64,000 nucleotides of DNA, from assembly GCA_949290565.1 (NCBI GenBank), contig CASESH010000018.1, positions 1,585 to 65,584 of the forward strand, written 5' to 3'. The translations under genes were made by a program, and so were the position numbers. The stretch is from an uncultured Christensenella sp. (GTDB taxonomy: Bacteria > Bacillota > Clostridia > Christensenellales > UBA1242). This document shows positions 43,034-64,000 of this stretch, piece by piece. How positions within the stretch are numbered: the first letter of the stretch is position 1; every line of letters begins with the position of its first letter. The notes under the pieces were generated by a model. It did no database searches. It was not told the DNA's origin and saw only the letters and a program-made list of their open reading frames with translations.

Positions 43034-43311
43034 AAAATTTAATTAACTGTTTAGAATTTTTTTAAAACCTTCTTTAATTTTTTTTTCATAAATCTTCTTT
43101 TTTTTCATAAACCCTCTACATAATTAAAACAAGACAAAGTTATAATTAATAAATTAGATTTAAAAAATACCATTAAGGCACAAGATAAAAACTAGAAAGA
43201 GTAAAACAAATTAAATAAGAAAAATGTTAAGATAAATCTAGTAAAAAAACTAAAAATTTATATAACTTTGTCTTAAAAAAAGTTAATTTTTTTCACATTT
43301 TAAAATAAAGT

Positions 43312-45338: not shown

Positions 45339-45381
45339 AATACTTCTCCTTTTAAGAAAAGACTAGATAAAGGGGCAAAAG

Positions 45382-45741
45382 TTAAATCCATCTAGTCGTG
45401 TTTGCCTTTTCAAAATTAACAACTCCACCCCGTTTGTCAGCAAAAACTAACTTTTGTTTTAAATCAAAAATATTTTTATTTTTTAATTCTAATTCTTCTT
45501 TTTCTTTAAGTTTTTTGTTATTTTGACTAACTTCCAAAAGAATAGATTTTTTTCGCCTAATATGAGTGTAGAGTGCTCTTTTAAGTGCTAAACAATCTAA
45601 TTTTGTGCCAATACTAAAAGCAAATTGATTTTTGAACTTTGCATAGTAGTTGTTTTTATGATAGAATATAGCATATTCTCTTTCAATTTTTTTTAGTCTT
45701 GAAGATATGTTAAATAAGTCATTTGTAATTAATTTTTCCAT
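45382..45741 (-). CDS. phage-associated basic protein, unknown function
   Basis: 119 aa with RBS AAAGGGG, lysine-rich. Immediately downstream of the capsid gene. Confidence 0.5.
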   Translation of the reverse strand: MEKLITNDLFNISSRLKKIEREYAIFYHKNNYYAKFKNQFAFSIGTKLDCLALKRALYTHIRRKKSILLEVSQNNKKLKEKEELELKNKNIFDLKQKLVFADKRGGVVNFEKANTTRWI

Positions 45742-45770
45742 TTTACCCCTTTGACCTAATCTAAAATTTT

Positions 45771-46937: not shown

Positions 46938-47309
46938 TTATTTTCCCCTTGTAATAAATTATGTTTTTTAGTTTAATAACCTTATAGTATAGAGAAATTC
47001 AAGCACATTCCTCTTTACTAAATAAGGTTACTTGTAGGGCAACTTTCTCACTTCGTTGACCTAACCTTTACGACAACCTATTTTAGCAAATTCAATAGGC
47101 TGAAAAACACGAATAAACAGCCCTAAAAAACTACCTACTTAACTATTAAATGATAGTAATTCAAAATTTTTTCTTCCTTTTTTTGATTGTTCTAAAATAT
47201 AATGCTTGACTCAATCTTAAATAAAAGAATGTTTAAAAAAAACAAATGAAATTTGTTTGGTTTAATTAAAACTTACTTTATACAAAAATAGTTAGAAAAA
47301 TTTTTTATT

Positions 47310-47567
47310 TTAGGACTTTTGCTTTGGTAAAGCACATTTACTAAGTATTCCCCCTGTTTCCATTTGAACTATTAATTCTCTTAAAGCCTTTGACTTAACT
47401 ATTTCATAAGACCTGATAAATTGACCTTCGCAAATTGTATGTAAAATGTTTGCAAAGCCAACTAAGTAGAATGACTTTAACAGTTTTCCAACTAATAGTT
47501 TTTGCCAAACTACAAGGCGAACTCTACTTATTATTAGTAAACATATCTCTAACAATCTTCTCGGCAT
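47310..47567 (-). CDS. possible small ORF overlapping the scaffold gene 3' end
   Basis: 85-aa track ORF. The ATG lies 44 nt inside the scaffold gene in another frame. Non-low-complexity, locally GC-richer sequence, but a weak RBS. Confidence 0.3.
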   Translation of the reverse strand: MPRRLLEICLLIISRVRLVVWQKLLVGKLLKSFYLVGFANILHTICEGQFIRSYEIVKSKALRELIVQMETGGILSKCALPKQKS

Positions 47568-48018
47568 CTTCTAAATTCTTTGGTTTACTAACCGGACTAA
47601 CTACAACATTGCTCCCTCTTTGCGAACCAATGAGAGTAGGAACAGAATCTAATTTAGTCTCAAAAATATACTTAGAAACAACTTTATCTCTAAGTTGTGC
47701 ATTAGATAAAATAAAATCAACTATCTCCTGTTCTTTGTCCTGCCAAGAAGTGCCTTCTTTAACTTCCTGTGGTGAAGAATTCTCCTCATTATCATCAAGT
47801 CGCTTTTGAAGACAAGCAAGTGATTGACATTTTTTAGTGTAATCACTTTGTAAATTATTGTAGGCCGTTAAAAGACTTTCGACATCTTTAAACTTGCCTA
47901 ACTTGGAGCCAATTTTGTTATCAAAACCTGACCTATTATCATCAACGCTATTAGCCTGCAAAAGTTCTTTGCCTTGTCCATTTGTAACGCATGGTTGTTC
48001 CAAAATATTTTCTTCCAT
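47524..48018 (-). CDS. phage scaffolding-like protein
   Basis: 164 aa with RBS AAAGGGGA. Helical and acidic. KFKDVESLLTAYNNLQSDYTKK and the C-terminal KPKNLEDAEKIVRDMF resemble scaffold proteins. Located between portal and capsid. Confidence 0.5.
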   Translation of the reverse strand: MEENILEQPCVTNGQGKELLQANSVDDNRSGFDNKIGSKLGKFKDVESLLTAYNNLQSDYTKKCQSLACLQKRLDDNEENSSPQEVKEGTSWQDKEQEIVDFILSNAQLRDKVVSKYIFETKLDSVPTLIGSQRGSNVVVSPVSKPKNLEDAEKIVRDMFTNNK

Positions 48019-48072
48019 AAAAATCCCCTTTTTAAATAAGATAAAAGAATAAACAAAAACTAAAACATTAGA

Positions 48073-48340
48073 TTTTGTTAAGTTAGTTAAAAAATAAGTT
48101 TTGTTAAGATTATTTAAGTTTTGTTAAGATTATTTAAGTTTTATTAACTTTTGTTAACTTTTATTAACTTTCGTTATGTTTTATTAAGTTTAATTAACTT
48201 TTATTAACTTTTATTAACTTTTATTAACTTTTATTAACTTTTATTAACTTTTATTAATTTTTATTAAGTTTTATTAAGTTTTATTAAGTTTTTGAAAGTT
48301 TTATTAAGTTTATTTAGGTTTAACTAAGATTTGTTAAGTT
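48073..48340 (-). repeat. 10-bp phased tandem array B (about 26 units; TTTTATTAAC/G on + strand, i.e. unit on minus strand)
   Basis: Read directly. From 48101 to 48340 every 10-nt print block is one unit (TTATTAACTT x7 in a row, TTATTAAGTT x5, TTGTTAAGAT/TATTTAAGTT 20-bp doublet x2). It ends 2 nt from the portal stop codon (48343). Confidence 0.95.
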
Positions 48341-48342
48341 TT

Positions 48343-49920
48343 CTAAATATTTATTCCAAAAATTTCTAAAACTTTATTCTTAAATTGTTCATCAATTTTG
48401 CCATTTTCATCTCTAAAAATGTCCGAATCAAGCAACTTTAAAATATGGTCTCTCTTTGTTGACAAACTTTCGCTTAGTGAACAGTCGCTCATAAAAACTA
48501 CATCTTCAAGTCCTAAGTCGCTACTTTTAAAGTATTTAACTGAAATCTCTTTCTTATCATTAGAAACTCTAATAAGTCTAGGCAAAACAGCAAACTGTTT
48601 ATAAAGTCTTAAAATCATTTTTGCCATACTCTTAACTGCGCCATCAATTTGTTCAATAGTCGAGTTAAGTCTTGAAGAATCTTGTTCAATTAAGAGTTCG
48701 AGTGCCGTACCGCTTAGAGAATTAGCACTAAATTGGTTAGACAAAATGTTAGTAACGCCACTAATTTCGCTAAATTCTTGTAAAAGACTTTCTTCTTCCT
48801 TATCGAAGCAACTAGGAAGGTTTTCTTCCTCTAAGAACTTAGGAGGCGTACCACCCTGCCTATAAATAATAACTTTGCCCGGTTCTAAACCATCTTGAAT
48901 AAGGTCCTCGACGTCAATACTGCCATCTTCGACAGTCAAAACACCCATAGAAATACGGTTTAAGAACTCGTGCTTTCTATTTTTAACAGCGTTGTAGGCT
49001 CTTTGAACGGGAATAATTTTACTAATGATACTTTTTCCCCAAAAACAACCTACGACTGAAAGACAATTTTGTTTAATGAAAGGAAAACCTCTTTTACCGT
49101 CAGGCAAATTAATAAATGGCAAATCGCCAACATAAAGCAACTTATCTTCACAAACGATAACAAGTCTGCCATTAGGAAACTGTTGCGAAGGGGCCTCATA
49201 TTTTTCAATCACAATGGCGTGGTCGTGTTTAGTGGAAGAAGAAAGAGAGGTCGAGGAATAGTCGAAAATATCAATATCTTTACCACTAACGTCAACGCCC
49301 CAAATATTCTTAATTGCTCTAACGCTGTAAGCCTTAGCGTGAATAATGCTCTCGCAATCATTAATGTCCTCGCAAGAATTATTGTCTGGAAAAATTTCAA
49401 ATGGAGAAACGGCGCAAACGCTAACTTCTCCTTCATAAACAAAGTCGCCACTAGAATTAGTAATTTTTTTACCCTGATTGTGATTCCAAACGACCTTGTA
49501 GAAACTAGTTCCGGTTATCTCGCTCCACTTTATCGCCTTAGAAATCACGCTTGACAAGTCAAGTTTTTCATAAACGCTACGCAAAATGTCTTGTGACAAG
49601 TCTGCAATTTGATGGTCATCTTTTGAAGGACTAGATGGAAGAATGTCCATTTCAGGCTTAACGGCAGTAAGTTTAGAAACTCTATCTTCAATAATTGAAG
49701 CAATGTGATTAAAGACATTTCTTTCTTGCCAAAAGTAACTTTTCTCGTTGTCCTCAATATCCATAAGAAGATTAATATTAGTGTATTGCTTACCAATAAA
49801 GAAATTATTATTTAGTCGCCACTCAGCCTCAAAAGGTTTTCTATCTTTTTGTCTTTTTTCAAAATCTTGCTTAACCGAGTTGATTAAATCTTCAATAAAC
49901 TCGCTTTTTTTCTTTCTCAT
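48343..49920 (-). CDS. phage portal protein
   Basis: 525 aa with RBS AAAGGAA. The N-terminal KPFEAEWRLNNNFFIGKQY is the portal-type pattern (E.EW..N..FY.G.QW). Its size and its position between terminase and scaffold fit. Confidence 0.65.
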   Translation of the reverse strand: MRKKKSEFIEDLINSVKQDFEKRQKDRKPFEAEWRLNNNFFIGKQYTNINLLMDIEDNEKSYFWQERNVFNHIASIIEDRVSKLTAVKPEMDILPSSPSKDDHQIADLSQDILRSVYEKLDLSSVISKAIKWSEITGTSFYKVVWNHNQGKKITNSSGDFVYEGEVSVCAVSPFEIFPDNNSCEDINDCESIIHAKAYSVRAIKNIWGVDVSGKDIDIFDYSSTSLSSSTKHDHAIVIEKYEAPSQQFPNGRLVIVCEDKLLYVGDLPFINLPDGKRGFPFIKQNCLSVVGCFWGKSIISKIIPVQRAYNAVKNRKHEFLNRISMGVLTVEDGSIDVEDLIQDGLEPGKVIIYRQGGTPPKFLEEENLPSCFDKEEESLLQEFSEISGVTNILSNQFSANSLSGTALELLIEQDSSRLNSTIEQIDGAVKSMAKMILRLYKQFAVLPRLIRVSNDKKEISVKYFKSSDLGLEDVVFMSDCSLSESLSTKRDHILKLLDSDIFRDENGKIDEQFKNKVLEIFGINI

Positions 49921-50255
49921 AATTCATTCCTTTTTATAAAATATATATTCAACTTCTAACCCCAAACTCGAAACAAAAAAAACAAATGAGCAATTAAAAA
50001 AGTAAAGAGGAAACAAATCCAATTTACTTTTTTTAGGATAATAAAACGCTATTATTTAAGAGTAATACTCTTGCATTTTACTTATATAAAATAAATATTT
50101 TATTATTTAAAGATAAGTTTTAAAAAAATATAAAATCATTTAAAACAATTAAAAAAATTGTTTGTGAAATAGAAGGTTAAAAAAAATTCAAAAACAGTTA
50201 AAAGTTTGTAAATTAAAAAATAAAAGAGTAAGAAGTTTAAAGGTTAAAAGAAAAA

Positions 50256-50585
50256 CTAATTTGATTGCTCACTTAAAATTTTAATCAGTCTATTTTTTTC
50301 AGTCAACAACTCCTCATCACTAAAATTAGAGTAATCGCAACAATCAGATGACGAAGAATTATTCATTTCACACAAAATTTTAATAGAATTAATATCAGGT
50401 GCGTGTTTTCTAGTAGTAATCTTTTGAGATTTAAGAGTTTTGTTCCCCTCTTTGTCGCAAACGAATTCTTCCACGCACTCACTAGTAGTGTAACCCTTTG
50501 CTAAATAGGAAAGCGAATCAAACAAAAAACTTTCCTGCCCGGGCAAAACATTTTTACAATCTTGATTATTTTTTTTTCTACCCAT
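50256..50585 (-). CDS. hypothetical protein, weak resemblance to the C-terminal half of XtmA-type small terminase subunits
   Basis: 109 aa from the internal ATG (MGRKKNNQD...). KITTRKHAPDINSIKILCEM resembles the ..LPPDv.A.kfwL.. segment of TerS, and FSDEELLTEKNRLIKIL is also TerS-like. No N-terminal HTH is seen, and it is located after terL rather than before it. Confidence 0.3.
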   Translation of the reverse strand: MGRKKNNQDCKNVLPGQESFLFDSLSYLAKGYTTSECVEEFVCDKEGNKTLKSQKITTRKHAPDINSIKILCEMNNSSSSDCCDYSNFSDEELLTEKNRLIKILSEQSN

Positions 50586-50941
50586 ATTGAAAATCCCAAA
50601 AAAAGTTTTAATGTAGTCAAAGCAAGAAACAAAAAAGTTTACAAGCAAATGACTTAAATATTTTTAAAAGTTTTAGCCTAACAAACATATCACAATTAAA
50701 ATTTTGTTAAAGTCTTTTTAATTGTCAGTTTTGTTTAGTAAAACAAATAGAAATTAAAGTAATTTAGATATTTATAATAAAATATTTTTGCAAAAATATA
50801 AAAAATTAAAAATTCTTATATAAAACATTAACAACTATTTTTAATAAAGGCGTAATTTATTTATTGTTAAAGTTTTATTTATAAAGTCGTACAACTTATT
50901 TAGAAACAAAAATTATCGCTAAATTTTGTTTAATTTAAACT

Positions 50942-52465
50942 TTATCTATATAATCTTTTTTTACGCATAAGTTCTTTTGCAACTTTGTCCTTATGTTTTT
51001 CAAGGTAAGTTTTAGGTCTAGCGTGAGGACTAGGTTTTGTCATAAGATAATATCTAAGTTCATCAAGGCAGTGGTCATCTTTTTTGACAGGCGTGTCGCC
51101 ACTCGACCAAAAATATGTTTTAAATTCTCTAATTAGATTAGTACAACAAGAAAAAATAAACAATCTAGCACGACCATTTGAATTTTTAATGTAAGACTTA
51201 ACCTGAGCAATTCCGGAAAACAAATCTTTATTTACTTTTGTATTCACAGCAATTCCCCTTTCATAAAATAGTTCGGCAACGCTTTTAACACCATTCAAAG
51301 TTCTTTGCCCGGCAGCGCTGTCAATAAGCGCCTCGTAATAACCCATATTGTTAGTGGGCCAATTTAAACTTTTACAAATGTTTTTTATTTTTTCAGCGTG
51401 ATAGTCAATGTCCTTACCTGCCTCAAAGTGCTCTTTTATAACATAAACATTTCCATCATAGTCAACGCAATACCAATGGCAAGCAAGAGGATTATTTAGT
51501 CCTGGGTCAATAGAAATTCCATCGTACCAATCGCTTGGAACATTAAACGGTTGAATAACATTAACTCTGTCGTCAAACTCTTTATAAACAAGTCCTTGGC
51601 TACCCGAAAACCTTCCATACTTTCTGGCATCGAGGTCATCAGTTGAGAGAGAGTTTTCAAAGAATTCAATCTCCTTCTCATCAAGGAAAGGGTTGTCGTT
51701 CCAATCCATTTGAATAAACCAAACCTCAGGGTTGTTTTTTTGATTTAAGAAAATCTCATCATAAACCCAACTCAAACCTTTTAAAGGAGTCATAGTACCA
51801 AAGAGTTCCCCCTTTTTATCAAGAACTCTCATTCGACATTCGAGATAAATGTCGTAACTAGGCTCCTCGTCAAACCAAACAAAATCTAAACTAGTTCCCT
51901 GGAATTTTTCACGACCTTGGTCGCAACTTTTAAACCCTATTGTGCTAGTCGAACCAAAAACATTTTTAATAAGGATATAATCAATAATACCATTTTCTGG
52001 GCTGTCTTTTTTACCTGAAAGCATAACAATTTCCTCAATCCAAAGAGGATTTAGATATTGCAAAATTTTTTTTTGAGCAACATCTCTTTGGACCTGTTTT
52101 GAAAGACTAACTACCCAGCCACTAACCGGGCCCTTATTATTTCTAAAAGGATGAATTCCCCTTGCTAAAAAAATAACCTCAACAGCACCACATTCAGTCT
52201 TGCCCGTTCTGTTGCCACCAAAAACCCACCTATTACGTTTTAAGCACTTGTGGAACTCCATTTGCTTTAAATGAACTTTTTCACCTGTATTGTAAGAAGC
52301 AAGTTTGTCAAAACGCTTTCTACTTTCGATTTCGCCATCAATTAAACCTAATTCCAAAACAGTTTTATAAAAAGAAGAACCGTTTTTTAAACCAAAAGCC
52401 GACTTACGATATCTTTTTTCAACTTCCAAAGCCACCAAAGTCAGCCTAGCAACTTCATCTCTCAT
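50942..52465 (-). CDS. terL: phage terminase large subunit
   Basis: Approx 507 aa from the ATG at 52465 (RBS AAAGGTGG). Walker A-like GGNRTGKTECGA, Walker B DFVWFDEEP, and the C-terminal nuclease motif DDHCLDELRY. Confidence 0.85.
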   Translation of the reverse strand: MRDEVARLTLVALEVEKRYRKSAFGLKNGSSFYKTVLELGLIDGEIESRKRFDKLASYNTGEKVHLKQMEFHKCLKRNRWVFGGNRTGKTECGAVEVIFLARGIHPFRNNKGPVSGWVVSLSKQVQRDVAQKKILQYLNPLWIEEIVMLSGKKDSPENGIIDYILIKNVFGSTSTIGFKSCDQGREKFQGTSLDFVWFDEEPSYDIYLECRMRVLDKKGELFGTMTPLKGLSWVYDEIFLNQKNNPEVWFIQMDWNDNPFLDEKEIEFFENSLSTDDLDARKYGRFSGSQGLVYKEFDDRVNVIQPFNVPSDWYDGISIDPGLNNPLACHWYCVDYDGNVYVIKEHFEAGKDIDYHAEKIKNICKSLNWPTNNMGYYEALIDSAAGQRTLNGVKSVAELFYERGIAVNTKVNKDLFSGIAQVKSYIKNSNGRARLFIFSCCTNLIREFKTYFWSSGDTPVKKDDHCLDELRYYLMTKPSPHARPKTYLEKHKDKVAKELMRKKRLYR

Positions 52466-52900
52466 TAAAACCACCTTTTCGACAAAAGAAGTATATTTTG
52501 CTAAAAATAGAAAAGTTAAAATAAACTATCAAAAGAAAATAATTACTAAAATACAAAAACATAAAATAAATTCTTTCTCTAAAATTAAAAACAAATTTTT
52601 AAACAAATTCTTAATCTCTATTAAATTTATTTAAACACAACTTTTTAAAACAATTAAATGACTAAAACACCTATAAATGTAAACAATTATAATAAAAGCC
52701 AATTTGCAAAAACACAAATCGACTTTTTGTAACTTTCAAAACTTTAATATTAAGAACTTTATTATTAAAATACTTAAAAATTAAAATGATTAAATTAGAT
52801 TAACAATAACTCAAAATCATTATGTTAAATGTAATAAATAAATTTGTATATTATATAAAAAATAGATTTACAAAACACAAATAAATTTTATTATTTAAAA

Positions 52901-53000
52901 AGTTTTATTAAGTTTATTTAACTTTTGTTAAGTTTTGTTAAGTTTAATAAAGTTATATTAGGTTTTGTTAACTTTTGTTAAGTTTTGTTAAGTATTTTAT
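52901..53000 (-). repeat. 10-bp phased tandem array C (10 units; AGTTTTGTTA type on + strand)
   Basis: Read directly: AGTTTTATTA AGTTTATTTA ACTTTTGTTA AGTTTTGTTA AGTTTAATAA AGTTATATTA GGTTTTGTTA ACTTTTGTTA AGTTTTGTTA AGTATTTTAT. It ends 5 nt before the AGGAGG RBS of the + strand gene. Confidence 0.9.
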
Positions 53001-53016
53001 TTTACAGGAGGTCAAA

Positions 53017-53808
53017 TTGAAAAAATTTTTACCAATCTTAATTGTCTTTTCGCTCATTTGCCTATTTATTGATACAAATTCGGTCAAGGCAAAATACACT
53101 AACTATGTTTATGCCAGAGTGCAAACAAGCGGAGTTTACTTATACAAATCGACCAATCCAACTCCCCAAAATTCATATTTTGAAATCCCGGCAACATATT
53201 TTGTATTACTCCTTTCCAACTATGACGCAAACTTTTACAAAGCACAATATAGAGATTATGTAGGCTATGTTCTTAAAAAAGAAGTAACGCCTGTTAACGA
53301 AACTCCACAAACTCCATTTTTAGAGACTCAAACATTTAGAGTTTACTCATCGGACGGAACAGGAATAAAATCAAGCCCGTTTGATAATGGAATAGTAATA
53401 GGTCAAGTAAAAGAACTAGAAGAAATAAACTATTATGGAAGCATAATAGGTCGAGAAGAAATAGACAAGCGAGGTAGTGTATGGGCATATGGCAAGACAT
53501 CAAATGGACAAGCAGGTTATTTTTATTGCGGTCTAATTGATGGACTAGAAAACATACCAATAAACACTGAAAGCACTACAATACTAGAAAATCCGTTTGA
53601 GGAAAATTCAAGCGACTACCTATACAACCTAGTTGATATAACTCCAATAGTAAAAATACTTATCATAGGACTAGTAACTATTCCGGCGATAGCAATATTA
53701 TGGCTAATATTTTTACCGAATACAAAACGACTTAAACCTAAGGGGATAAAAGTTAGTAAACCCCAAACTATTAAACAAATACAAGATTATAATGATGACT
53801 TATTATAA
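53017..53808 (+). CDS. secreted, C-terminally membrane-anchored protein with two SH3b-like repeats
   Basis: Start corrected to TTG at 53017 (AGGAGG at 53006-53011, 5-nt spacer); the track start at 52975 lies inside array C. Signal peptide KKFLPILIVFSLICLFIDTNSVKA. Two segments ending in ..FYKAQYRDYVGYVLKKEV and ..SNGQAGYFYCGLI resemble SH3b. C-terminal TM ILIIGLVTIPAIAILWLIFL. It is one of only two protein-coding genes (with sigK) and three features (with rnpB) on the + strand. Confidence 0.7.
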   Translation: MKKFLPILIVFSLICLFIDTNSVKAKYTNYVYARVQTSGVYLYKSTNPTPQNSYFEIPATYFVLLLSNYDANFYKAQYRDYVGYVLKKEVTPVNETPQTPFLETQTFRVYSSDGTGIKSSPFDNGIVIGQVKELEEINYYGSIIGREEIDKRGSVWAYGKTSNGQAGYFYCGLIDGLENIPINTESTTILENPFEENSSDYLYNLVDITPIVKILIIGLVTIPAIAILWLIFLPNTKRLKPKGIKVSKPQTIKQIQDYNDDLL

Positions 53809-53990
53809 TAAGATAAATCTTAGCCTTAAAAAATAATAAATTTTAGTAAATTTTACGGTTTTATATTAAGAAGTTTTTAATTAGAAATAAAATATATAAG
53901 TCAAATATAAAATTTATACTCTATATTAATTATTTATATTTATAAGTTGAATAAAAATAATTTATTAATTATCTAGGCTAAAAAATATTA

Positions 53991-54150
53991 AGTTTTATTA
54001 AGTTTTGTTAACTTTATTTAACTTTTGTTAAGTTTTTTTAACTTTTGTTAAGTTTTTTTAACTTTTGTTAAGTTTTGTTAAGTTTCGTTAAGTTTTGTTA
54101 ATTTTATTAAGTTTTGTTAAGTTTTGTTAAGTTTTGTTAAGTTTAATAAA
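53991..54150 (-). repeat. 10-bp phased tandem array D (16 units; AGTTTTGTTA type on + strand)
   Basis: Read directly. It includes a 20-bp doublet ACTTTTGTTAAGTTTTTTTA x2 (54021-54060). There is a single 9-bp unit near 54101, after which the register shifts by one. Confidence 0.92.
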
Positions 54151-54828
54151 CTTTTTTTAATAATTATTTTATAACTTTACTATAAATAGTTAAAGTAAAA
54201 ACAAATTAAGTAAAAGGAAACTAGCAAAATATAATTTCTTTTAATCATAATAATAAAGAATGTTAAAATTAAAAAATTCCAACAAACAAATAAAAACAAA
54301 ATAAATATTAACTAAAATATTTTTAGAAAACATATAAATTGTTTTATTTTTAGTACTAAAATAAGTAAGAATTAGCACTAAAAAAATCTAAATTACTTTA
54401 TACCCTTTTTTAAACTTATGATTGAATAATATAAAAGAAATTAAAGATAAAATAATTTCTTTGATATAAATTGAACAATTCCAAAACAATTTAGAAAAAC
54501 TACAAATAAATTTATAAGAATTAATGAAATCAACAATTTGTAAATTTTAAATACCAAATATAAATATATTAAAACAACCTAAACAAGCAACAAAATAAGA
54601 AAATAACTTATGAGAAATTAAAGTGTTGAGGATTAATTAATCAAAAGAAAGTAATAAAAAACAAATAAATAAAAATAAAAAACTAAAAAATTTGCTTAAT
54701 TAAGTATTAATAATAAAAATATAAAAAGTAATTTAAAAAGAAATAAAAGCAAGTGAACAAATCATTATAAAAACAAATTGATAAAAATTAATACTTATAA
54801 AAATAGTAATTCATAATAAAAAAATGAA

Positions 54829-55464
54829 TTAATTGAACTTTCTAAGTTTGTTAATAATAAGACCGCACAAATAATCTCTATCATTTTTGAGCAGTCTTCC
54901 CTCGCTGTCATCAACACAAGCCCTATTAACCCTCTGCAAAATGTCGCTAAGAAAATTATCGCTGAAAACCTTTTGAGAGTTAGAGCAATTAGAGAGATTT
55001 TTAGAAAGTACTCTTTGGAAACGTTCGAGAGCAATCATAAGTTTTCTAAAAAAGGTTCTACGGTCCATATTAAAGAGAGCCGGGCAACTGCTAGAAGGAA
55101 TATTGTCAACATACCTAGCCATTAAGAGTTGAACGTAGTCAGATTTAAGTTCGGCGAGAGATTTATCGACAATACATTTAAAATTAAGTAAGTTGATTTT
55201 TTGCTGTTCAAGAAGAATAATCCCATCTGCTAAATCATAAAGAGTAAGACTCGAAGGCAAAATCATAGAATTAGAAGCCCTTGAAAGAACAAGTTTATCA
55301 ATCGACTTAACCAAGTTAGGAACACAAGAATAAACCGAAAGAAAGGAACGACTCCAAGTTCTCAAAGCCTTCTTGTCAAAATTGTTAGGATTAAAATCAT
55401 TCATAAGGAATTGAGTTGAGTCAACAGCAAAATCATCACTTATATTTAAAAAATCAAATTTCAT
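54829..55464 (-). CDS. hypothetical protein, possible sigma-70 region-4-like / phage late-gene regulator
   Basis: 211 aa with a strong RBS (GGAGG 5 nt upstream). LSELKSDYVQLLMARYVDNIPSSSCPALFNMDRRTFFRKLMIALERF has the spacing of a sigma region-4 / DUF1492-type HTH. Weak, by eye only. Track ORF 54795..55034 overlaps out of frame and is spurious. Confidence 0.55.
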   Translation of the reverse strand: MKFDFLNISDDFAVDSTQFLMNDFNPNNFDKKALRTWSRSFLSVYSCVPNLVKSIDKLVLSRASNSMILPSSLTLYDLADGIILLEQQKINLLNFKCIVDKSLAELKSDYVQLLMARYVDNIPSSSCPALFNMDRRTFFRKLMIALERFQRVLSKNLSNCSNSQKVFSDNFLSDILQRVNRACVDDSEGRLLKNDRDYLCGLIINKLRKFN

Positions 55465-55524
55465 TTAAACCTCCATATTAAAAGCGCTCCCTATTAATAT
55501 AATACCGTAAAGATGACAAGGCGT

Positions 55525-55544
55525 GTCCACTTAAAAAAAAGTGG
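55525..55544. promoter_or_regulatory. inverted repeat TCCACTT-A6-AAGTGGA upstream of the regulator gene
   Basis: 7-bp arms at 55525-55531 and 55538-55544, 61 nt upstream of the 55464 start. Each arm contains a degenerate DnaA-box-like core (TGTCCAC / GTGGATA). Confidence 0.4.
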
Positions 55545-56243
55545 ATATTTTTCCCTGTCAATTAAATTCTCTCACATAAAAATGACAAAATCAATATTTA
55601 GTACACTTTTTTTTAAAAAAAATTTTTTTGGCAAAAAAACAAGCGCTCATAGAGTAATCATAAATTAAAAAAAGCAACAAATAAAAATGATTTTTTAAAA
55701 AAAAACTCACGAAAAAAAAATAGTGTAAAGAAAATGAAAGTTTTTGAAAGAATAAGAAAGATTTATAAAGATTATTATAAAAATAATTAACAAATATGTA
55801 GTTTTTTAAGAAAAAAATAAGAAATAATAAGAAAAAGTTTAAGTAATAAAATTTAAAAAAAGAAATTTATATTGTTAAGAAAATAAAAATTAAAAAATTA
55901 TATTGCTAAGAAAAAAATCATTAAAAAATATTTATTAAAAAAATGTTTTATAAACTATTGCAATTCCAACTGTATTAACTAAGAAACAAAAAATTAAAAA
56001 AGAACAAAACCAAAGTTGTAATTCTTCATATATAAAGGTTTTTACAACTTAATTTTTTCAAATTGTTTTCTAAAATTAATTTTATAAAAGTAAAAAAAAT
56101 AGTTATACAAACTTACTTCTAAGATTCAAAAAGTTTTAAATAGAGTAAAAATTTTTAGTTTAAAAGAGCAAGAATTAGTAATTTTAGTCTTTAACAAAAA
56201 AGTAAACAATTAAGTATTTAAAGTTAATATAAAGCCTAAAAAG

Positions 56244-56579: not shown

Positions 56580-57236
56580 TTAAGCGAGTTTATCTTGCTC
56601 GACATTTAAAGAATTGATATTATCATCAAGCATACAAATTTTGTTGATAGAAATTTCGTAAGCGACTCTTGTTTCTACGCAGTCGTCATCTAACTTTTTT
56701 TGGTACTCCCTACTTTGAATACGACCTATAATACTAACTTTTTGACCGACAACAAAATTTTTTAAATATCTAGCATTTCTACCCCAAGCGATAGCAGGTA
56801 AATAATCTGACTTATTGTAAGACCTATTTACAGCAATAAGAACATCACAAATTTCACGACCGAAAGGCGTAGTTCTAAAAACGGGCTCTTTGCAAATAAA
56901 GCCACTAATTTCGACAAGATTTGGGTTCATAGAATAGTCAATCTCGACAACACTTCTAACAAAAACATTGAGAATAAGTTTACTTTTTCCATCTACAAAC
57001 TTGTTGTAACTTCTAAACTGACCCTGAACGGCCACAAGATTACCCACGACAAAAGAGTTATCGAGCAACTTTTCGCTAATAATGACAGGAATAGTGTCAA
57101 AATTATTAGACAATCTTTCGATATTAATAAAAACCTCATAGAAGCCTTCGCCAAAAGATTCGTGGCTAAAAACGGGCGCAGAAGCAACAGTACCTCTTAA
57201 AAAAACTTTGTTATTTTCCATCAATTCGTAATTCAT
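56580..57236 (-). CDS. tandem-OB-fold single-stranded DNA-binding-like protein
   Basis: 218 aa with RBS AAGGGAGA. Two SSB/PriB-like OB repeats: NKVFLRGTVASAPVF..VAVQGQFRSYN and NLVEISGFICKEPVFRTTPFGREICDVLIAVNRS..LPAIAWGRNARYL..VGQKVSIIGRIQSREYQ. No acidic C-terminal tip. Confidence 0.7.
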   Translation of the reverse strand: MNYELMENNKVFLRGTVASAPVFSHESFGEGFYEVFINIERLSNNFDTIPVIISEKLLDNSFVVGNLVAVQGQFRSYNKFVDGKSKLILNVFVRSVVEIDYSMNPNLVEISGFICKEPVFRTTPFGREICDVLIAVNRSYNKSDYLPAIAWGRNARYLKNFVVGQKVSIIGRIQSREYQKKLDDDCVETRVAYEISINKICMLDDNINSLNVEQDKLA

Positions 57237-57320: not shown

Positions 57321-57410
57321 CTTATAAAACAGTCTAAAACTTAATAAATCTTAATTAAACTTAATAAAATAGTCTAAAACTTATTAAAACTTAATAAAAG
57401 TTAAGTAAAA
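57321..57410 (+). repeat. 10-bp phased tandem array E (9 units; CTTAATAAAA on + strand, with TAGTCTAAAA variant)
   Basis: Read directly: CTTATAAAA CAGTCTAAAA CTTAATAAAT CTTAATTAAA CTTAATAAAA TAGTCTAAAA CTTATTAAAA CTTAATAAAA GTTAAGTAAAA. Confidence 0.88.
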
Positions 57411-57533: not shown

Positions 57534-58319
57534 CTACTTAGCAATTTGTTTACCCGTATGGTCAATATAAAAATCAGATTTTAAAAGCAAATCGCTAATT
57601 TTAACAAATTCAAAGCCTCTACTTTTTAAAGTGGTAAGCACGCTAGGCAAATAGTCTAAAACATAATCAGCATTATTGTGGCACAAGATAATTGAACCCG
57701 AACCAACCTTAGTAATAATATTGCTAATAACTTTTTCAGACGAGATATTTTTCCAATCGCAAGAGTCAACATTCCATTGAACAGTTTGCAAATTAAGACT
57801 TTCAGCAGTAGAAATAACATTGTTGTTATAAGCGCCAAAAGGAGCACGGAATAAAGTAACAGGCTGATTAGTAATTCTTTGAATTTTTTCCATAGAAGTT
57901 TCAAGTTCTAGTTGAATTTGAGAAGTTGAGAGTTTAGTCAAATCAGGGTGAGTATTACTATGAGTACCAATTTCCATACCATAATTAAAAATAGTTCTAG
58001 TAAGTTCGGGGTATTTGTCAACCCAGATACCAACCAAGAAGAAAGTGGCCTTAACATCAAATTGTTCCAAAATTTTTAAGATGCCCTCAGTTTTATCGGC
58101 GCCCCAAGAAGCATCAAAAGAAATGGCAATTTGATTGCTAGAATTGTCAACACAGTAAACAGGAAGTTTTCTATTTGAGTTAGACAAAAATACACTAGCA
58201 AGAGGAGCCTCTCCACCGAGCGAAGAACAAAGAAGAATAAGTACCAAAGTTAGAAGAACAACTAACTTAATGGTCTTGCTAGAAAAACTTAAAAAAACTA
58301 TCTTACCCTGCCTTTTCAT
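57534..58319 (-). CDS. polysaccharide deacetylase (NodB/CE4), PdaB-like
   Basis: N-terminal TM/signal sequence, then ISFDASWG (the PdaB-type FD.SWG in place of TFDDG), GTHSNTHPD and LFRAPFG. Start set to ATG at 58319; the track uses TTG at 58331. Confidence 0.85.
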   Translation of the reverse strand: MKRQGKIVFLSFSSKTIKLVVLLTLVLILLCSSLGGEAPLASVFLSNSNRKLPVYCVDNSSNQIAISFDASWGADKTEGILKILEQFDVKATFFLVGIWVDKYPELTRTIFNYGMEIGTHSNTHPDLTKLSTSQIQLELETSMEKIQRITNQPVTLFRAPFGAYNNNVISTAESLNLQTVQWNVDSCDWKNISSEKVISNIITKVGSGSIILCHNNADYVLDYLPSVLTTLKSRGFEFVKISDLLLKSDFYIDHTGKQIAK

Positions 58320-58740
58320 AATACACCCCAAGCGAATAAAAATTTTGACAACAAATGTAGCAAAAAGACTAAAAAACTGAGAAATAAAAATTAAAATAAA
58401 TAAATAATTTGTTTAAAAGAGATTAAAAATTAAGAATATCTTAAATCTTAAAATATTAAATTAAAACAAATCAAACAAGCATTAAAAAAACTAATAAATA
58501 TATGTAAAATTAAAAAAGAAAAAGAATTAAATAAAAAATTTTTTAGAATATTTTGCTAACATTTATTCAAAAAATTACAAGACAAATTTTTAAAAATAAG
58601 TCTTAATAAAAGATATTCAGTTATAATTAAAAAAATGAGTATGACAAGAAAATAAATATAAAATCAAATGTAAAAATATAAGTAAACTAATTAATTATAA
58701 ACTTAAATTAAACAATAATTAGATAAATAAAAAAGAAAAA

Positions 58741-58761: not shown

Positions 58762-58820
58762 TTTTCTAACATATTGCATAAAAATAAAATTAAATAACAC
58801 TAAAACTTGACTAGCAAAAA

Positions 58821-59010
58821 CTTAATAAAACTTAATAAAAGTTAATAAAACTTAATAAAACATAAATAAACTTAATAAAACTTAAATAAACTTAATAAAA
58901 CATATTAAAACTTAACAAAATAGTCCAAAACTTAAATAAACTTAATAATTCTTAAAAAAAGTTAATAAAATAGTCTAAAACTTAATTAATCTTAATAAAA
59001 CTTAACAAAA
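58821..59010 (+). repeat. 10-bp phased tandem array F (19 units; CTTAATAAAA on + strand)
   Basis: Read directly. Every 10-nt print block from 58821 to 59010 is one unit (CTTAATAAAA x8, GTTAATAAAA x2, TAGTCCAAAA, TAGTCTAAAA, and others). It ends 34 nt from the parC stop (59045). Confidence 0.95.
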
Positions 59011-59044: not shown

Positions 59045-62000
59045 CTAAATATCTGCGCTAATACCTACCTTACTGACAGGAATAGTCTTTTTAGTTTTAT
59101 CAAAAGGTTTTGCTTTGTCAGATTTAGAGCAAATTTTAATTAAATCAGTTGACCTTGAAAAGAAGTTAGAATTTTTATCAAACAAGCAAATTTCCTTAGG
59201 ATTAGTAACAAGACAAGAGAAAGCGAGTTTTTCGCCGGAGTGAAGTTTTATACCCTTTCTATACCTAGCACTAGGGTCAATCGAAGCGGTAATAACACGC
59301 TTACACAGTCCGTTTTGAGTAACGACAACAATTTCGCCCTCATTATTGACACAACTGTCAATACTTAAACAATAGTCGCCCTCAGCCAAATTAATACCCT
59401 TAACGCCACCAGCGACTCTACCTTGAACAGGAATATCATCAGTTTTAGCATTTAAGACCATACCTGAGGAAGTAACAAAAACAAGATTGTAATTAGTTAA
59501 GAGTTCAGACTCGACCTTAATAAGCCTATCATCATCTTTAAGTTTAATTGCTTGGTAAGCGTTTTTAAGTAAGTTATATTCAGATTTAGGAGTTTTCTTG
59601 ACCATACCGAACTTAGTATAGAACATTAAATTACCTTCTTGATTTTCTATGTCCTGATTGAAAATGGCAACAATATGCTCATCTTTTTCGAGTTCCTTAA
59701 ACAAATCAGTTTCAGCGACACCACGCCCTCTAAACTTACATTCACCAATTTGTGAGGCGTTAATCTTAAAGCAGTTACCAAGCGAAGTGAAGCAAAGCAA
59801 CTTAGAATTAGACAAACAATCAAACTTAATAACATTAATATCAGCCAAAGTAGAGTCCTCTTTAATATCTCTACTAGATTGGAAATAATTTTTTTCTTTG
59901 ATAAGTTTAAACGAGTTATCAAGAGCCTTTAAAATAATAATATTTTGAGGAACATTTATCTTTTTAAGGTCCTCATTAACGCTAATTTTAGCGCTTTCCT
60001 TAGCGAACTTAGTAAGTCTATCCTTTTTATATTTTTTTCTAATCTCAAAGAGTTCCTTTTTAACAACTTCAAATTGTTTTTTAGGAGAAGCCAAGACTTC
60101 TTTTAAATACTTAATGAGTTCGTGCAAAGATTTAAGTTCTTCCTCTAACTTATAGACTTCAAGACTAGTTAGTCTAGCAAGTCGCATATCCAAAATAGCC
60201 TGAGCCTGTCTATCTGAAAGTTTAAATTTATCGATAAGTCTAACCTTAGCCTCAGAGGAATTCTTACTTGTTTTAATAATTTTGACGACGGCGTCAATAT
60301 TTTTAATAGCGATGATAAGACCTTCTAAGATATGAGCCCTTTCCTCAGCCTGACTAAGTTCGAACTTAGACCTACGAACAATAATCTCTCTTTGGTATTG
60401 ACTATAATAAGAAATAATATCTAAAAGTCCCATTTGTTTAGGTTTTCCACCAGCGATAGCAACCATATTGATACCAAAGGTACACTGCAAATCGGTGTAT
60501 TTAAGAAGTGAATTATAAATTTTATTTACACTAGCATCCTTTTTCAAACGAATAACAGCACGCATACCTTGTCTATCAGATTCATCTCTAATTTCGGCGA
60601 TACCACCTAAATCGTATTTATCCTCCTCTTTAAGTTCGAGGATTTTTCTAAGGAGAGTAGATTTGTTAACGCCATAAGGGATTTCAGTAATTACAAAACT
60701 CTTTCTATCAGAACCCTCGCCTTCCAAGTGGATTTTAGCACGAATATAAATCTTACCCTTACCTGTCTTGTACGCCTGAACAAGTTCAGAAGAATCAAGA
60801 ATATAAGCGCCCGTAGGAAAATCCGGACCTTTAATAAACTTCATCATCTCGGCAAGAGAAATCTTAGGATTGTCAATGTAGGCAATAACCCCATCAATAA
60901 CTTCTGCTAGGTTATGAGGAGGAATATTAGTAGCAAGACCAACGGCAATACCCATAGAACCATTTACTAAAAGGTTAGGAAATCTACCCGGAAGACAAAC
61001 AGGTTCTTTTAAGGTATCATCAAAGTTGAGTTCCCACTTAACAGTATTTTTATCTAAATCTCTTAGCAACTCCATAGCCAAAGGCGAAAGTTTTACCTCA
61101 GTATATCTCATAGCAGCAGGAGGGTCTCCATCAATACTACCGAAGTTACCTTGGCCGGTAATAAGAACTTGACTACAACTAAATTCCTGAGCCATATTAA
61201 CAAGTGCTTGATAAACTGAACTATCTCCATGAGGATGATATTTACCTAAACAATCACCAACGATTCTAGCCGACTTTTTAAAAGGCGAATCAGGAGTAAC
61301 ACCAAGTTCTAGCATATCATAGAGGATTCTACGCTGAACAGGTTTAAGCCCGTCTTCTACACGAGGCAAAGCCCTATCGATGATAACGTGCTCAGAATAA
61401 GGAATCATAGACTCATGCAAAATAGTCTCAATATTTTTGTAAATAATACCATCAACTACCTCACTAGACCCACCATCGTAAAACAATCTCTCGTTGTCAA
61501 TCTTACCACTGACACCAAAAGCATTGCTACCAACGTTAAGGCTAACCTCCTCAAAATCACGATTTAAAAGGTCAACGCTCTTTTGCAACAACCTTTCATT
61601 TTTTATTTGTTCGCTATCCTTTTCATCTTGACCTTCAAAATTTGTTACACTTGAACTTGACAAACTCGAAGGTTTTTTACCCCTAAAACTTGGATTTTTT
61701 GTGCCATTTGTCACATTTTTATTACTATTGCTATTCTTATTTGTACTCAAATCTTCTCTTCCTTTTGTATCAAAATCAACTTTTTCTTCCTCAGAAGTTA
61801 TATCACTATCTTCATTTTGCAAATCTAAAAAACTATCTCCTTCCTCATTAGTTGTTTGAAAAAGATTATCTTCTTCTTGAATTGAATCAAATTGCTCATA
61901 GTTACTTTCTTGGAAAGAATTATCTAATTTACTTTCAAAATCTTGATTAGTGACCTCTGCTCGCTTTTTGTCTTGATTTGAATAATTATAGTCTTCACTT

Positions 62001-62713
62001 TCATTAAAATCATTGTCCATATTAGTTTTTGTATGACTATATTTTTCCAAATCTTTTTCATTGTCAAAATCTTCATTATCTAATTCACTAACATTGTCAA
62101 ACTCTTGACTACTTGTTTCACTGTTGTTGTCAAACTCTTGACTACTTGTTTGTATATGGTTACTTACTGAAATATCAGATTCATCATTTTGATTATCTTG
62201 TAGTTTATAAATAAACTCATTTTGTTTAACTTGTGAATTGTCAGTTATATTGTTATAATTAAAATCATTAGAACTATCTTGTGTATTTTCATCTAAGAAA
62301 TTATTTTCAAAATCACTTTCAGAATCATTCAACTGCTCTTGCCAATTAGAATTTAAATCTTCATAAGATTGTTTAGGGCTATCATTTTCCCTATTTTCTC
62401 TGGCCTTTTGACTAAGTCTTTTAATGTAATTTTGCTCATCTAAAACATTTTTATTTGACTTAGTAATCTTATTTAAAATTTTTTGTTTATTAGATAAGTC
62501 TTGCTCATTAGAAGTTTCAACTTGCTTGTATTTACCCGTAACAAAATCGAAAGAAAGTTGACCTTGCGCTATCCCACTTTCTCTCTGCTCTTGACTATCT
62601 TCTTTTTCCTCATCTTCTCTAACAAACAACTCACTTACATCAATTTGACCGGGAATGGAATCATCAAAATTATTTTCATTATTGTTGTTGTCAAAATCTT
62701 CATCATCAAACAT
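59045..62713 (-). CDS. parC: DNA topoisomerase IV subunit A (ParC-type) with an approx 415-aa low-complexity N-terminal extension
   Basis: 1222 aa. The catalytic core begins near residue 430: [80 protein letters not shown] and YIDNP closely follow B. subtilis ParC rather than GyrA. No GyrA box (QRRGGKG) is seen in the C-terminal domain. Residues 1-415 are D/E/N/S/Q-rich. Confidence 0.85.
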
Positions 62714-62993
62714 AAAAACCTACCCAAAATAATAAAAGAATTTATTAAAATAAAAAAATTTATAAAGTAAACCATTATAAGTTAAAATTTTGTAACATAA
62801 AATATTTAGCAACAATTTAAGTTAAAACAGTACTGTTTTTTAAAATATAAATAGATTTATATTTATCTAAAATTAGTTAAATTAATTTTTTAATAAAAAA
62901 ATAATTTTATTGTGTTATCCTAGTAAATTTGTTTTTCATTTAAAGAATAAAATCAATATTAAACAAATAGTTAGTAAGACAAAATTAATGAAG

Positions 62994-64000
62994 CTATTTT
63001 TTCTCGTATTTCATAAACTCATCTTCTTTATTAAAATCAACATACTGAGAAAGATATTGCTTTCTTGACTCGATATCGTTACCCATAAGAGTAGTAATAG
63101 AAAGTTCAGCATTGGCAATATCATCAATACCAACTTTAATAAGCATTCTAGTTTCAGGATTCATAGTAGTTTCCCACAGTTGGTCTGGATTCATTTCTCC
63201 AAGGCCTTTGTACCTTTGAATAGAATAACCCTTGCCAAACTTTTTAATAACCTCTGGGAGTTCCTTGTCCGAATAAACATATTCACTCTTGTCTTTTTTA
63301 TAAATTCTATAAAGAGGAGGCAAAGCAATATAAACGTGCCCGCAAGAAATCAAATCTCTCATATATCTAAAAAAGAAGGTGAGCAAGATAGACCTAATAT
63401 GAGCACCATCTTGGTCAGCATCTGAAAGAATAACTACTTTATGGAATTTTAAATTTTTTAAATTAAAATCTTCCCCAATACCAGCGCCCAAAGAGGCGAT
63501 AACAAGCCTAAATTCCTCATTAGAAAGGACTTGTTCTAATCTCTTTTTTTCAGCATTAAGAGGTTTTCCCCTAAGAGCAAGAACAGCCTGAAAACTTCTA
63601 TCTCTACAAAGTTTAACAGTTCCCCCAGCACTATGACCTTCAACAATAAAGAGTTCATTAAGTTCAGCATTTTTACCCGTACAGTGAGCGAAATTGCCAA
63701 GCAAACTAGAAGATTCTATGCTATTTTTTTGTCTATTCAAATCTTTTGCCTTTTTTGCCGCAATTCTAGCACGAGCCGCATTTTTTGCTTTTTCTATAAT
63801 ACTAGTAGCAATCTTAGCGTTTTCTTTCTTGTCAAAAAACCTTGTCAAGCCTTTGTAAATCATACTTTCTACAAGACCCTTAACCTCAGGATTACCCAAC
63901 TTAGTTTTTGTTTGTCCTTCAAATTCAATATCGTGCATTTTTATAGCAAGAACAGTAGAAATTCCCTCACGATAGTCCTCACTAATTAAATTTTCCTCTT
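62994..64000 (-). CDS. parE: DNA topoisomerase IV subunit B (ParE/GyrB family); 5' end beyond the window
   Basis: FEGQTKTKLGN, IVEGHSAGG (Toprim), LSDADQDGAHIRSILLTFFFRYM and KGLGEMNPDQLWETTM. The frame stays open upstream of the track ATG to position 64000 (..EDYREGISTVLAIKMHDIEFEGQTK). ParE is assigned from pairing with a ParC-like partner. Confidence 0.8.
   Translation of the reverse strand, partial: EENLISEDYREGISTVLAIKMHDIEFEGQTKTKLGNPEVKGLVESMIYKGLTRFFDKKENAKIATSIIEKAKNAARARIAAKKAKDLNRQKNSIESSSLLGNFAHCTGKNAELNELFIVEGHSAGGTVKLCRDRSFQAVLALRGKPLNAEKKRLEQVLSNEEFRLVIASLGAGIGEDFNLKNLKFHKVVILSDADQDGAHIRSILLTFFFRYMRDLISCGHVYIALPPLYRIYKKDKSEYVYSDKELPEVIKKFGKGYSIQRYKGLGEMNPDQLWETTMNPETRMLIKVGIDDIANAELSITTLMGNDIESRKQYLSQYVDFNKEDEFMKYEKK

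Follow-up and report, generated by a model that had tools for sequence, protein, structure and literature searches.

SSB (disordered linker and acidic tip) and FtsZ (disordered linker and C-terminal peptide) are C-terminal docking tethers with known partners, and eukaryotic topoisomerase (topo) II carries a long, poorly conserved, charged and disordered C-terminal region with regulatory and localization signals. Clostridia carry SMC-ScpAB and are not known to use MukBEF. Among bacterial type IIA topoisomerases, the acidic C-terminal tail of Escherichia coli and Salmonella GyrA, comprising the last 35-38 amino acids (aa), modulates activity (PMC6463007, PMC11626157), and in E. coli a contact between MukB and ParC positions the decatenase on the chromosome (PMC5061553, PMC4738335). 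Here, we analyzed a stretch of 64,000 nucleotides from an uncultured Christensenella sp. (contig CASESH010000018.1 of assembly GCA_949290565.1; hereafter, the window), which contains a complete gene for a ParC-like A subunit of a type IIA topoisomerase on its minus strand (59045..62713; 1222 aa plus stop; PF00521, PF03989). In this protein the enzyme proper is preceded by an N-terminal tail of 415 aa (aa 1-415, 61469..62713), recognized by open-frame statistics, composition and GC content by codon position. Features are given below in window coordinates and lie on the minus strand unless stated otherwise. The tail carries two related motifs at its tip, a hypervariable linker and a conserved element at its base. 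It is genuine, almost certainly translated and largely disordered, and we regard it as probably a docking module, a "motif on a leash," of a topo IV-like enzyme.

Several features of this tail recall the described systems, and others set it apart. As in SSB and FtsZ, a short conserved terminal peptide is borne by a disordered linker of variable length and sequence; unlike in those proteins, it is N-terminal, comprises two motif copies with a steady spacing, belongs to a topoisomerase and has only a putative partner. The tail of GyrA is similarly a non-conserved, acidic and disordered appendage on a bacterial type IIA A subunit. However, it is C-terminal, about 35 aa long and situated past the pinwheel of a true gyrase, whereas the present tail is N-terminal, 415 aa long and part of an enzyme without a GyrA box, with tandem tip motifs that are conserved and an acidity that is not conserved among relatives. 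The MukB-ParC contact differs in that it joins the folded ParC C-terminal domain to the MukB hinge without a disordered tail or short motif, and the eukaryotic topo II region differs in that it occupies the opposite terminus and has phosphorylation and nuclear-localization signals but no tandem Q-motifs. In the literature, we found no account of an N-terminal tail on ParC or GyrA, no type II topoisomerase as a client of the sliding clamp and no contact between topo IV and the clamp. An otherwise ordinary enzyme thus bears an accessory module that is shared across its clade and has not been described before, and no precedent matches it in position, size or motif.

The gene is a single, ATG-started open reading frame (ORF), and its product is 100% identical to the protein P0001. 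The GyrA/ParC core begins at about aa 424-447, with the Pfam DNA_topoisoIV domain starting at aa 447, in agreement with the original prediction, made from the DNA letters of the window, that the conserved ParC N-terminus would lie near residues 430-447. The landmark GLKPVQRR occurs at aa 455 here vs. aa 39-41 in tail-less homologues, which gives a tail of about 415 aa and upholds the size and span (61469-62713) first proposed. No domain match was returned by a Pfam search of aa 1-441, and a PDB sequence search with the tail produced noise only (E ~2.6). Given the base composition of the same stretch, the probability of a stop-free run of 415 codons is 6e-19; none of 20000 shuffled versions remained open over 415 codons, and the remaining five frames of the tail DNA contain 17-106 stops. 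GC content by codon position (0.43/0.25/0.21) is coding-like, and overall GC is 30% in the tail vs. 14% in the neighboring intergenic DNA. Since five independent assemblies from different sources agree on a length of 1222 aa, with 1-11 substitutions, the tail is not an assembly fusion, a possibility that had been raised when the extension was first noticed. In the related loci L001 and L002, only 2-3 nt separate the end of parE from the first ATG (ATG-1), which is preceded by GAGGGG or AAAGGA, an arrangement that looks classic for translational coupling. The parC ATG of the window follows a Shine-Dalgarno (SD)-like GGGTAGG at a distance of 5 nt, and this element resembles those of other genes in the window. 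Taken with the open-frame probability, the coding periodicity and a conserved motif directly after ATG-1, these features indicate that the tail is real and almost certainly translated, as the original prediction had held, with ATG-1 as a start.

In the window, parE and parC are separated by a spacer of 280 bp with 14% GC (62714..62993, no strand assigned), at the parC end of which the GGGTAGG element is located; the corresponding gap in relatives is the 2-3 nt mentioned above. It seems that AT-rich DNA was inserted here recently and that the operon was thereby uncoupled. Promoter-like matches within the 280-bp gap did not exceed chance, and a terminator search of it found none. The spacer also contains an 18-bp tandem repeat at 62731-62771.

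Assignment of the protein within the type IIA family relied on Pfam, PDB, and NCBIfam comparisons and on the 120 closest homologues, whose cores are 48-66% identical to that of the window and which all come from uncultured Clostridia; the closest named relatives are uncultured Christensenella sp. and Clostridia metagenome-assembled genomes (MAGs). The N-terminal arm (aa 424-446) and DNA breakage-reunion core (aa 447-888) at 60050..61444 include the catalytic-tyrosine motif AAMRYTE; PF00521 matched aa 447-888 with E=1e-157, and PDB sequence matches of the core to GyrA and ParC (1e-165 to 1e-104) had about equal scores. The C-terminal beta-pinwheel domain (59048..59971) matched PF03989 in 3 stretches (E=2e-25) as well as the C-terminal domain structures 1zi0 and 1wp5. 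Gyrase needs the GyrA box (QRRGGKG) for supercoiling. No similar motif was present in the window protein or in any of the 120 homologues, and the alignment to the C-terminal domain of E. coli GyrA begins only past the box. Equivalog models of NCBIfam were missed for both GyrA (836.3 vs. a cut-off of 902 for NF004043 and 818.3 vs. 877 for TIGR01063) and Gram-positive ParC (TIGR01061; 693.8 vs. 813.25), and only the generic subfamily model NF004044 was passed (743 vs. 654). NCBI names of the homologues are likewise split between "DNA topoisomerase 4 subunit A" and "gyrase subunit A." The adjoining gene, cut by the window end (62994..64000), is the 3′ part of a ParE/GyrB-type B-subunit gene by NCBIfam GyrB and ParE models; a strain locus (L004) holds the full B subunit of 653 aa with HATPase_c, DNA_gyraseB, Toprim, and GyrB_C domains. 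B- and A-subunit genes also adjoin in L001 and L002, and no second A subunit was found within the 64-kb window. Because the GyrA box is missing and the neighbor is of the ParE/GyrB type, "ParC-like, topo IV-type" is plausibly the best label for the protein.

N-terminal tails of 60-680 aa occur in about 85 of the 120 closest homologues. The original prediction had called such an arm highly unusual in bacteria, which agrees with its absence from the literature but not with its frequency among the nearest homologues. Neighbor-joining of the cores yielded, in this order, clades with no tail, one clade with a single motif and a tail of 75-95 aa, and a large clade with two motifs and a tail of 190-680 aa. 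Presence of the tail is therefore common among the nearest homologues, as the comparison suggested at the outset reveals, but its length and composition are not conserved. The emphasis originally placed on acidity and on N, S, and Q richness missed the conserved parts, which are the two tip motifs and a basal element that we term Block 2. Following an acidic N-terminal cap read from the sequence (aa 1-18, 62660..62713), motif 1 (short linear motif 1, SLiM-1; aa 19-34, 62612..62659) was defined by homologue alignment and regular expressions, with the consensus P-I-D-G-Q-I-G-I-E-E-L-Y-V-R, also given for the family as PIDGQIGIEELY. It appears right after the start codon in 85-93 of the 120 homologues, depending on the regular expression, and five full-length strain variants show zero amino-acid changes in it. 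Motif 2 (SLiM-2; aa 47-60, 62534..62575), defined by homologue alignment, has the consensus P-I-D-G-Q-[ILM]-S-[FLM]-x-D-[LI], or PIDGQxSFxDL in short form, and reads QGQLSFDF in the window. It trails motif 1 by 26-31 aa in 65 distinct homologue sequences, with an invariant G-Q, and both motifs share the form [PI]-[IL]-D-G-Q-h-[GS]-h-x-[DE]-h, where h is hydrophobic. With few exceptions, homologues have an acidic head where the motifs are borne, with a median of -0.26 for net charge per residue.

At the other end of the tail, Block 2 (aa 363-405, 61499..61627) is a helix and turn with the pattern V-E-x-L-N-K-D-F-E-E-V-D-x-x-V-G-x-D-V-F in a logo of 57 homologues, and Block 3 (aa 406-423, 61445..61498; family pattern EKVY.ENSG.DVVDG in alignments) extends the arm that precedes the core. 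Motif 1 and Block 2 are separated by anything from 22 to 617 aa, whereas the distance from Block 2 to GLKPVQRR is steady at 60-74 aa. By the sequence comparisons, the conserved information sits at the two ends of the tail.

Within about 150 kb of the window and related loci, the motif is confined to ParC. A profile search of 1.84 billion representative proteins with the tandem motif, for which single motifs are too short to be detected, gave 20 matches and none in other protein families. These 20 were ParC N-termini or fragments, except for the internally repetitive P0175 and P0179, which we rejected as motif carriers: their Pfam matches are noise and the likeness is one of chance or composition. 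P0175 (426 aa), which is rich in A, G, P, and R, consists in part of ~13 tandem repeats of PxxPRRGQISFTE[FL]E that resemble motif 2 (GQISF..), probably by coincidence. A word-indexed search with the same profile yielded 54 candidates and added nothing. Counts in the 50%-identity library do not gauge prevalence, as ParC cores collapse there into few clusters. No cultured carrier was found, and a search with the short-tail homologue P0119 gave only unnamed proteins or MAG proteins listed under "Clostridia/Firmicutes bacterium." Many other ParC proteins of uncultured Clostridia (P0202-P0280) have short N-terminal tails of 25-110 aa with a related acidic-hydrophobic peptide, Q[LIV]xI[DE][DE][LI]I (e.g., QLNIDELIDG, QVDIEDLIDNG), followed by a K-rich helix, EEEKKxNKKKLKEQLLVS. 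Such sequences suggest that Q-initiated acidic-hydrophobic motifs on ParC may be much commoner than long tails.

Between its conserved ends, the tail behaves very differently. The hypervariable disordered linker (aa 112-362, 61628..62380) was delimited by low predicted local distance difference test (pLDDT) scores, failed alignment and strain differences. When the window was compared with L004, 11 codons differed in the tail, all at aa 112-357, of which 1 was synonymous and 10 were non-synonymous; in the core, 16 codons differed, 14 of them synonymous and 2 non-synonymous. The middle of the tail could not be aligned with the closest species-level relative (P0002), whereas aa 346-447 are 64% identical to it. 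Across the 80 relatives measured, the stretch from the motifs to Block 2 spans 77-551 aa and the net charge per residue of the linker runs from -0.33 to +0.16, with neutral or net basic linkers in 28 of the 80, including those with the most similar cores. In strain L005 (ENA scaffold_36701, positions 66-3593), a variant of 1175 aa (P0161) has an in-frame deletion of 141 nt that removes aa 365-411, i.e., Block 2. The deletion corresponds to window positions 61480-61620, obvious flanking microhomology was not seen, and the variant is known from a single metagenome scaffold, so that either a true polymorphism or an artifact of that scaffold may be involved.

In composition, the tail has the D, E, N, S, and Q bias reported in the original prediction (N 14%, S 12%, D 12%, E 12%, Q 7.5%), with 100 acidic and 41 basic residues for a net charge of -59, in contrast to the slightly basic core and C-terminal domain. 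Acidity is uneven, since aa 63-111 have a net charge of +3. The exact 25-bp repeat reported earlier (62094-62118 and 62127-62151) was recovered by exact 25-mers, Tandem Repeats Finder and a second repeat finder as part of a 33-bp tandem repeat of 2.8 copies with (T)SSQEFDN units (62059..62151), which codes for TSSQEFDN twice and for a degenerate third unit. The linker of the window is also 8% aromatic, with 11 [DEN]-aromatic-[DEN] sites vs. 3.7 expected (z = 4.2). In contrast, linkers of the nearest clade are 0-1.5% aromatic and the median z of the acid-flanked pattern across relatives is -0.1. We thus rejected an acidic-aromatic "sticker" as a conserved feature, and the pattern in the window looks as though an EFDN-type unit had been duplicated, in the manner of the 33-bp repeat. 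The acidic, N/S/Q-rich character of the linker is lineage-specific, for which AT-biased drift and slippage in an unconstrained spacer offer the best explanation; its composition and the 33-bp repeat, respectively, fit AT-biased mutation and growth by replication slippage.

AlphaFold2 was run on aa 1-520 of the window protein with a 76-sequence alignment and on a minimal homologue of 872 aa (P0042). The core was poorly modeled in both (predicted template modeling score 0.25 and 0.50, respectively), which leaves the disorder and helix calls as the usable output. Residues 112-362 were predicted as coil without secondary structure at pLDDT <50. Motif 1 scored ~76 with a short helix at aa 26-29, and in P0042 it formed a helix at aa 8-19 with pLDDT ~70. 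A K-rich helix was predicted at aa 73-109 (62387..62497; pLDDT 68-82), as was a helix of Block 2 at aa 367-383 (pLDDT 80-88). A charge-hydropathy calculation put every tail segment on the disordered side of the boundary and the core on the folded side. The disorder anticipated in the original prediction is thus borne out by both methods, and a prediction of this kind typifies disordered tails in which small segments fold once they bind.

Since the terminal motif pair has a steady spacing, the spacer is free to vary and the element at the base is conserved, the tail reads as a tethered docking peptide. In type IIA enzymes, the N-terminus of ParC and other A subunits adjoins the TOPRIM domain of the B subunit at the DNA gate. 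It is for this reason that ParE-ParC fusions can be made and crystallized, and such fusion constructs were among our PDB matches. The leash would accordingly start at the DNA gate beside the TOPRIM domain of ParE and would allow the two tip motifs to explore a large volume. With two docking peptides per ParC and four motifs per heterotetramer, the motifs could dock bivalently on a conserved, probably dimeric partner, and docking would enrich the decatenase at its sites of need or control it there. Tethering was one of three ideas offered in the original prediction, and it is the one that best fits the comparative data.

The likeliest partner, on the evidence of the motif sequences, is the beta sliding clamp DnaN, which is left on newly replicated DNA, but we put forward this identification tentatively and would not be surprised by another partner. 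The clamp dimer offers two pockets. Published clamp-binding consensus sequences are QL[S/D]LF or QxxLF (PMC12309361) and Q-phi-x-[L/M]-x-[F/L], with RecB QVEMEF binding with a dissociation constant of 2 uM (bioRxiv 10.1101/2025.08.20.671105), and we compared the motifs with QL[S/D]LF, Q-phi-x-[L/M]-[F/L], and Q-phi-x-[L/M]-x-[F/L]. Both motifs open like the clamp-binding signature Q-aliphatic-[S/G/D]-hydrophobic: Q is found in 100% of variants of each, position 2 is I, M, L, V, or F, and position 4 is I, L, M, F, or V in motif 1 and F, L, M, or I in motif 2. They are also located as in clamp clients, in a flexible terminal region: they span aa 19-60, and the charge-hydropathy calculation classes the tail around them as disordered. 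Like the N-terminal QLSLPL of Hda, the C-terminal QLSLF of PolC, QMSLL of MutS, and QVEMEF of RecB, they are Q-initiated hydrophobic peptides in a disordered terminus, and QLSFDF of the window and QMSLL, QISLL, and QIGFDF of relatives resemble the consensus (PMC12309361; bioRxiv 10.1101/2025.08.20.671105). Motif 2 of the window (QLSFDF) has the hexapeptide spacing and is a near-fit, and 14 of 58 distinct motif-2 variants (e.g., QMSLL, QLSFDF) are of canonical penta- or hexapeptide type.

The tandem Q-motifs might, moreover, represent a new clamp-binding class similar to the PIP (PCNA-interacting protein) box that tethers topo IV bivalently to DnaN behind the fork, a suggestion based on sequence likeness that we consider doubtful. 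The pattern Q-h-x-h-x-[DE]-h is followed by 28 of the 29 variants of motif 1 and by 47 of the 58 variants of motif 2, and in its general form, Q-x-x-h-x-x-h-h, the spacing is that of a PIP box. Compared with the PIP box Q-x-x-[ILM]-x-x-[FY]-[FY], the spacing of Q1, h4, h7, and h8 is identical and acidic residues are often found at positions 5-6, as a comparison of FEN1-type QxxLDDFF with QIGIEELY and QLSFDDL illustrates. However, position 7 is aliphatic (L, M, or I) and no more than roughly half of motif-1 variants have an aromatic residue at position 8, and bacteria lack PCNA. The likeness is one of resemblance and does not amount to membership in the PIP-box class.

A number of observations weigh against the clamp and, in part, against docking itself. 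None of the 29 motif-1 variants fits the canonical clamp consensus, and QIDVSE, as motif 1 of the window reads, is a misfit. Motif 1 and most motif-2 variants are one residue longer than the hexapeptide, placing the last hydrophobic residue one position too far (position 7), and position 4 of motif 2 in the window is F rather than L or M. A strict D-G before the Q, (near-)invariant here, is not known from clamp-binding motifs. A relaxed clamp-binding regular expression arises in 6.6% of shuffled tails, and a match in a single sequence therefore carries little weight; among window ORFs of at least 150 aa, this expression matched twice, in motif 2 and inside a deacetylase ORF (57534-58331). PolC, DnaE, MutS, MutL, and DnaN are not encoded within the window. 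Absence of the tandem motif from other families means that there is no sign of the shared hub-binding peptide expected of clamp clients, and the motifs could equally dock inside the enzyme, on ParE or the ParC C-terminal domain. Finally, the deletion in strain L005 may mean that Block 2 is dispensable, or its contig may be misassembled.

The main rival to a DnaN partner is auto-regulation, in which the acidic tip motifs, with or without an acidic linker, would fold back on surfaces with which the enzyme itself binds DNA. The basic C-terminal pinwheel, the DNA gate with its G-segment groove and the ATPase gate of ParE are candidates, and the tail would either compete with DNA or gate T-segment capture, in much the way that the acidic C-terminal tail of E. 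coli GyrA tunes wrapping of DNA. The tail exits the core beside the DNA gate, its head is acidic in almost all homologues (median -0.26) and its net charge of -59 is set against a slightly basic core and C-terminal domain. The steady distance from Block 2 to the core suggests that Block 2 packs on the enzyme, a tandem motif restricted to ParC is what would be expected of an intramolecular ligand, and there is a precedent in the control of supercoiling by the acidic tail of GyrA (PMC6463007, PMC11626157). Nevertheless, a leash of 22-617 aa is hard to square with a tuned intramolecular effective concentration, and AlphaFold2 gave no confident packing signal, although the core itself was poorly modeled. 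Mimicry of DNA through bulk negative charge, another idea of the original prediction, is disfavored as a conserved role because linkers are neutral or basic in 28 of 80 relatives, even if the tip alone could serve; overall, we consider auto-regulation unlikely. Several of the same comparative data bear on the more skeptical view that the bulk of the tail is a tolerated, low-complexity expansion that AT-biased mutation and replication slippage inserted between a short ancestral N-terminal peptide and the core, without a role for its size or composition. Such an expansion would account for the 10 non-synonymous vs. 1 synonymous changes between strains, the lack of alignable similarity of the middle to the nearest relative, the tenfold variation in length, the flips in charge sign, the 33-bp tandem repeat, the enrichment of acid-flanked aromatics in this species only (z = 4.2) and an N richness in keeping with the low GC content (30% in the tail, 14% in the adjoining spacer). 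On the other hand, every two-motif lineage retains a linker of at least 77 aa and an open frame despite AT-rich DNA, and conservation of the tip motifs and Block 2 implies that the tail as a whole is under selection. We find this view improbable as a full account, and note that it is compatible with the leash and conflicts only with claims that composition matters.

Two further explanations fare worse. The idea, also offered originally, of condensate-like behavior would make the tail a sticker-and-spacer region, with [DE]F[DE]N stickers in an N/S/Q-rich spacer, that gathers topo IV into nucleoid foci. The long disordered region, its 8% aromatic residues and the 11 acid-flanked sites vs. 3.7 expected in the window linker are in its favor, as is the disordered C-terminal region of eukaryotic topo II, which has been implicated in condensation. 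Yet the sticker pattern is absent from relatives (0-1.5% aromatic in the nearest clade, median z -0.1) and, without polycations, homotypic coacervation would be hindered by the net charge of -59; we consider a condensate very improbable. Least credible of all, to the point of being nearly negligible, is that the upstream frame lies outside the mature protein owing to an internal start near the core or to a fusion in assembly or sequencing. In-frame TTG/ATG codons do occur at aa 375, 376, 410, 432, and 436, the 280-bp AT-rich gap before ATG-1 is unusual against the 2-3 nt of relatives, and the middle of the tail evolves as though unconstrained. But the open-frame probability of 6e-19 and the agreement of five assemblies on 1222 aa stand against it, as do conservation of the motifs after ATG-1 across dozens of species and the GGGTAGG element 5 nt before ATG-1; no convincing SD was found before the internal candidates, and a start at ATG-436 would cut away conserved core residues. 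Since the motif after ATG-1 is conserved and the ATG of relatives directly follows parE behind an SD, an internal start cannot be the sole start. Internal initiation, which the original prediction proposed to look for near residue 400, may still yield an additional short isoform.

The docking module that we favor bears on how decatenases reach their substrate. Positioning of the decatenase is understood mainly for E. coli, through MukB, and Firmicutes use SMC-ScpAB. In a whole clade of uncultured gut Clostridia, topo IV has gained a conserved pair of putative docking peptides, borne on a leash of 60-680 residues, which poses a concrete question that can be addressed with peptides: what binds PIDGQIGIEELY and PIDGQxSFxDL? 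Should the sliding clamp prove to be that partner, decatenation would be directly linked to replication and the range of known clamp-binding motifs would be extended. In that case, physical coupling to the clamp would be shown for the first time in a bacterial type II topoisomerase, and bacteria without MukBEF would deliver their decatenase directly to freshly replicated, precatenated DNA. Regardless of partner, the tail is a natural example of the evolution of a disordered region, with conserved motifs and spacing at either end and, between them, a linker free to drift in sequence, length, and charge. In practice, work on the tail is limited mainly by the fact that all carriers found are uncultured MAGs.

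Other features of the window deserve mention. Directly 3′ of the parC stop codon, a tandem array with a 10-bp period comprises 19.4 copies, and arrays of this type, with the unit TTTTATTAAG and the variants TTTTGTTAAG and TTTTATTAAC, are dispersed in the window (52 matches vs. 4.2 expected) at 58817-59010, 34642-34794, 48139-48311, 52903-52985, 53993-54144, and 57337-57399. All are intergenic, and several are directly downstream of a gene and on the gene's strand. Phasing with the helical repeat suggests that they represent curved DNA or an array of protein-binding sites. Downstream of parC in the relative L002, no array of this kind was found; there, parC is followed by ORFs of 265 aa and then 218 aa that match those of the window, the likeness being by size alone. 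In the window, the 218-aa ORF (56580-57236, minus strand) encodes an SSB-family protein that Pfam matches to SSB in two stretches (aa 106-202 being the better), as would fit a tandem arrangement of oligonucleotide-binding (OB) folds; it ends in VEQDKLA, without an acidic SSB-type tip. A prophage or its remnant has probably been inserted between housekeeping genes at 40841-56000, where ORFs that lack Pfam matches accompany a P22-like portal (48343-49920) and a large terminase (50942-52474). At the opposite end of the window, a replication and repair cluster on the minus strand (544-17287) contains rpoD, dnaG, priA, NAD-dependent ligA, and a pcrA/uvrD-type helicase gene, and an hrcA-grpE-dnaK-dnaJ operon is situated further along, an ordinary context.

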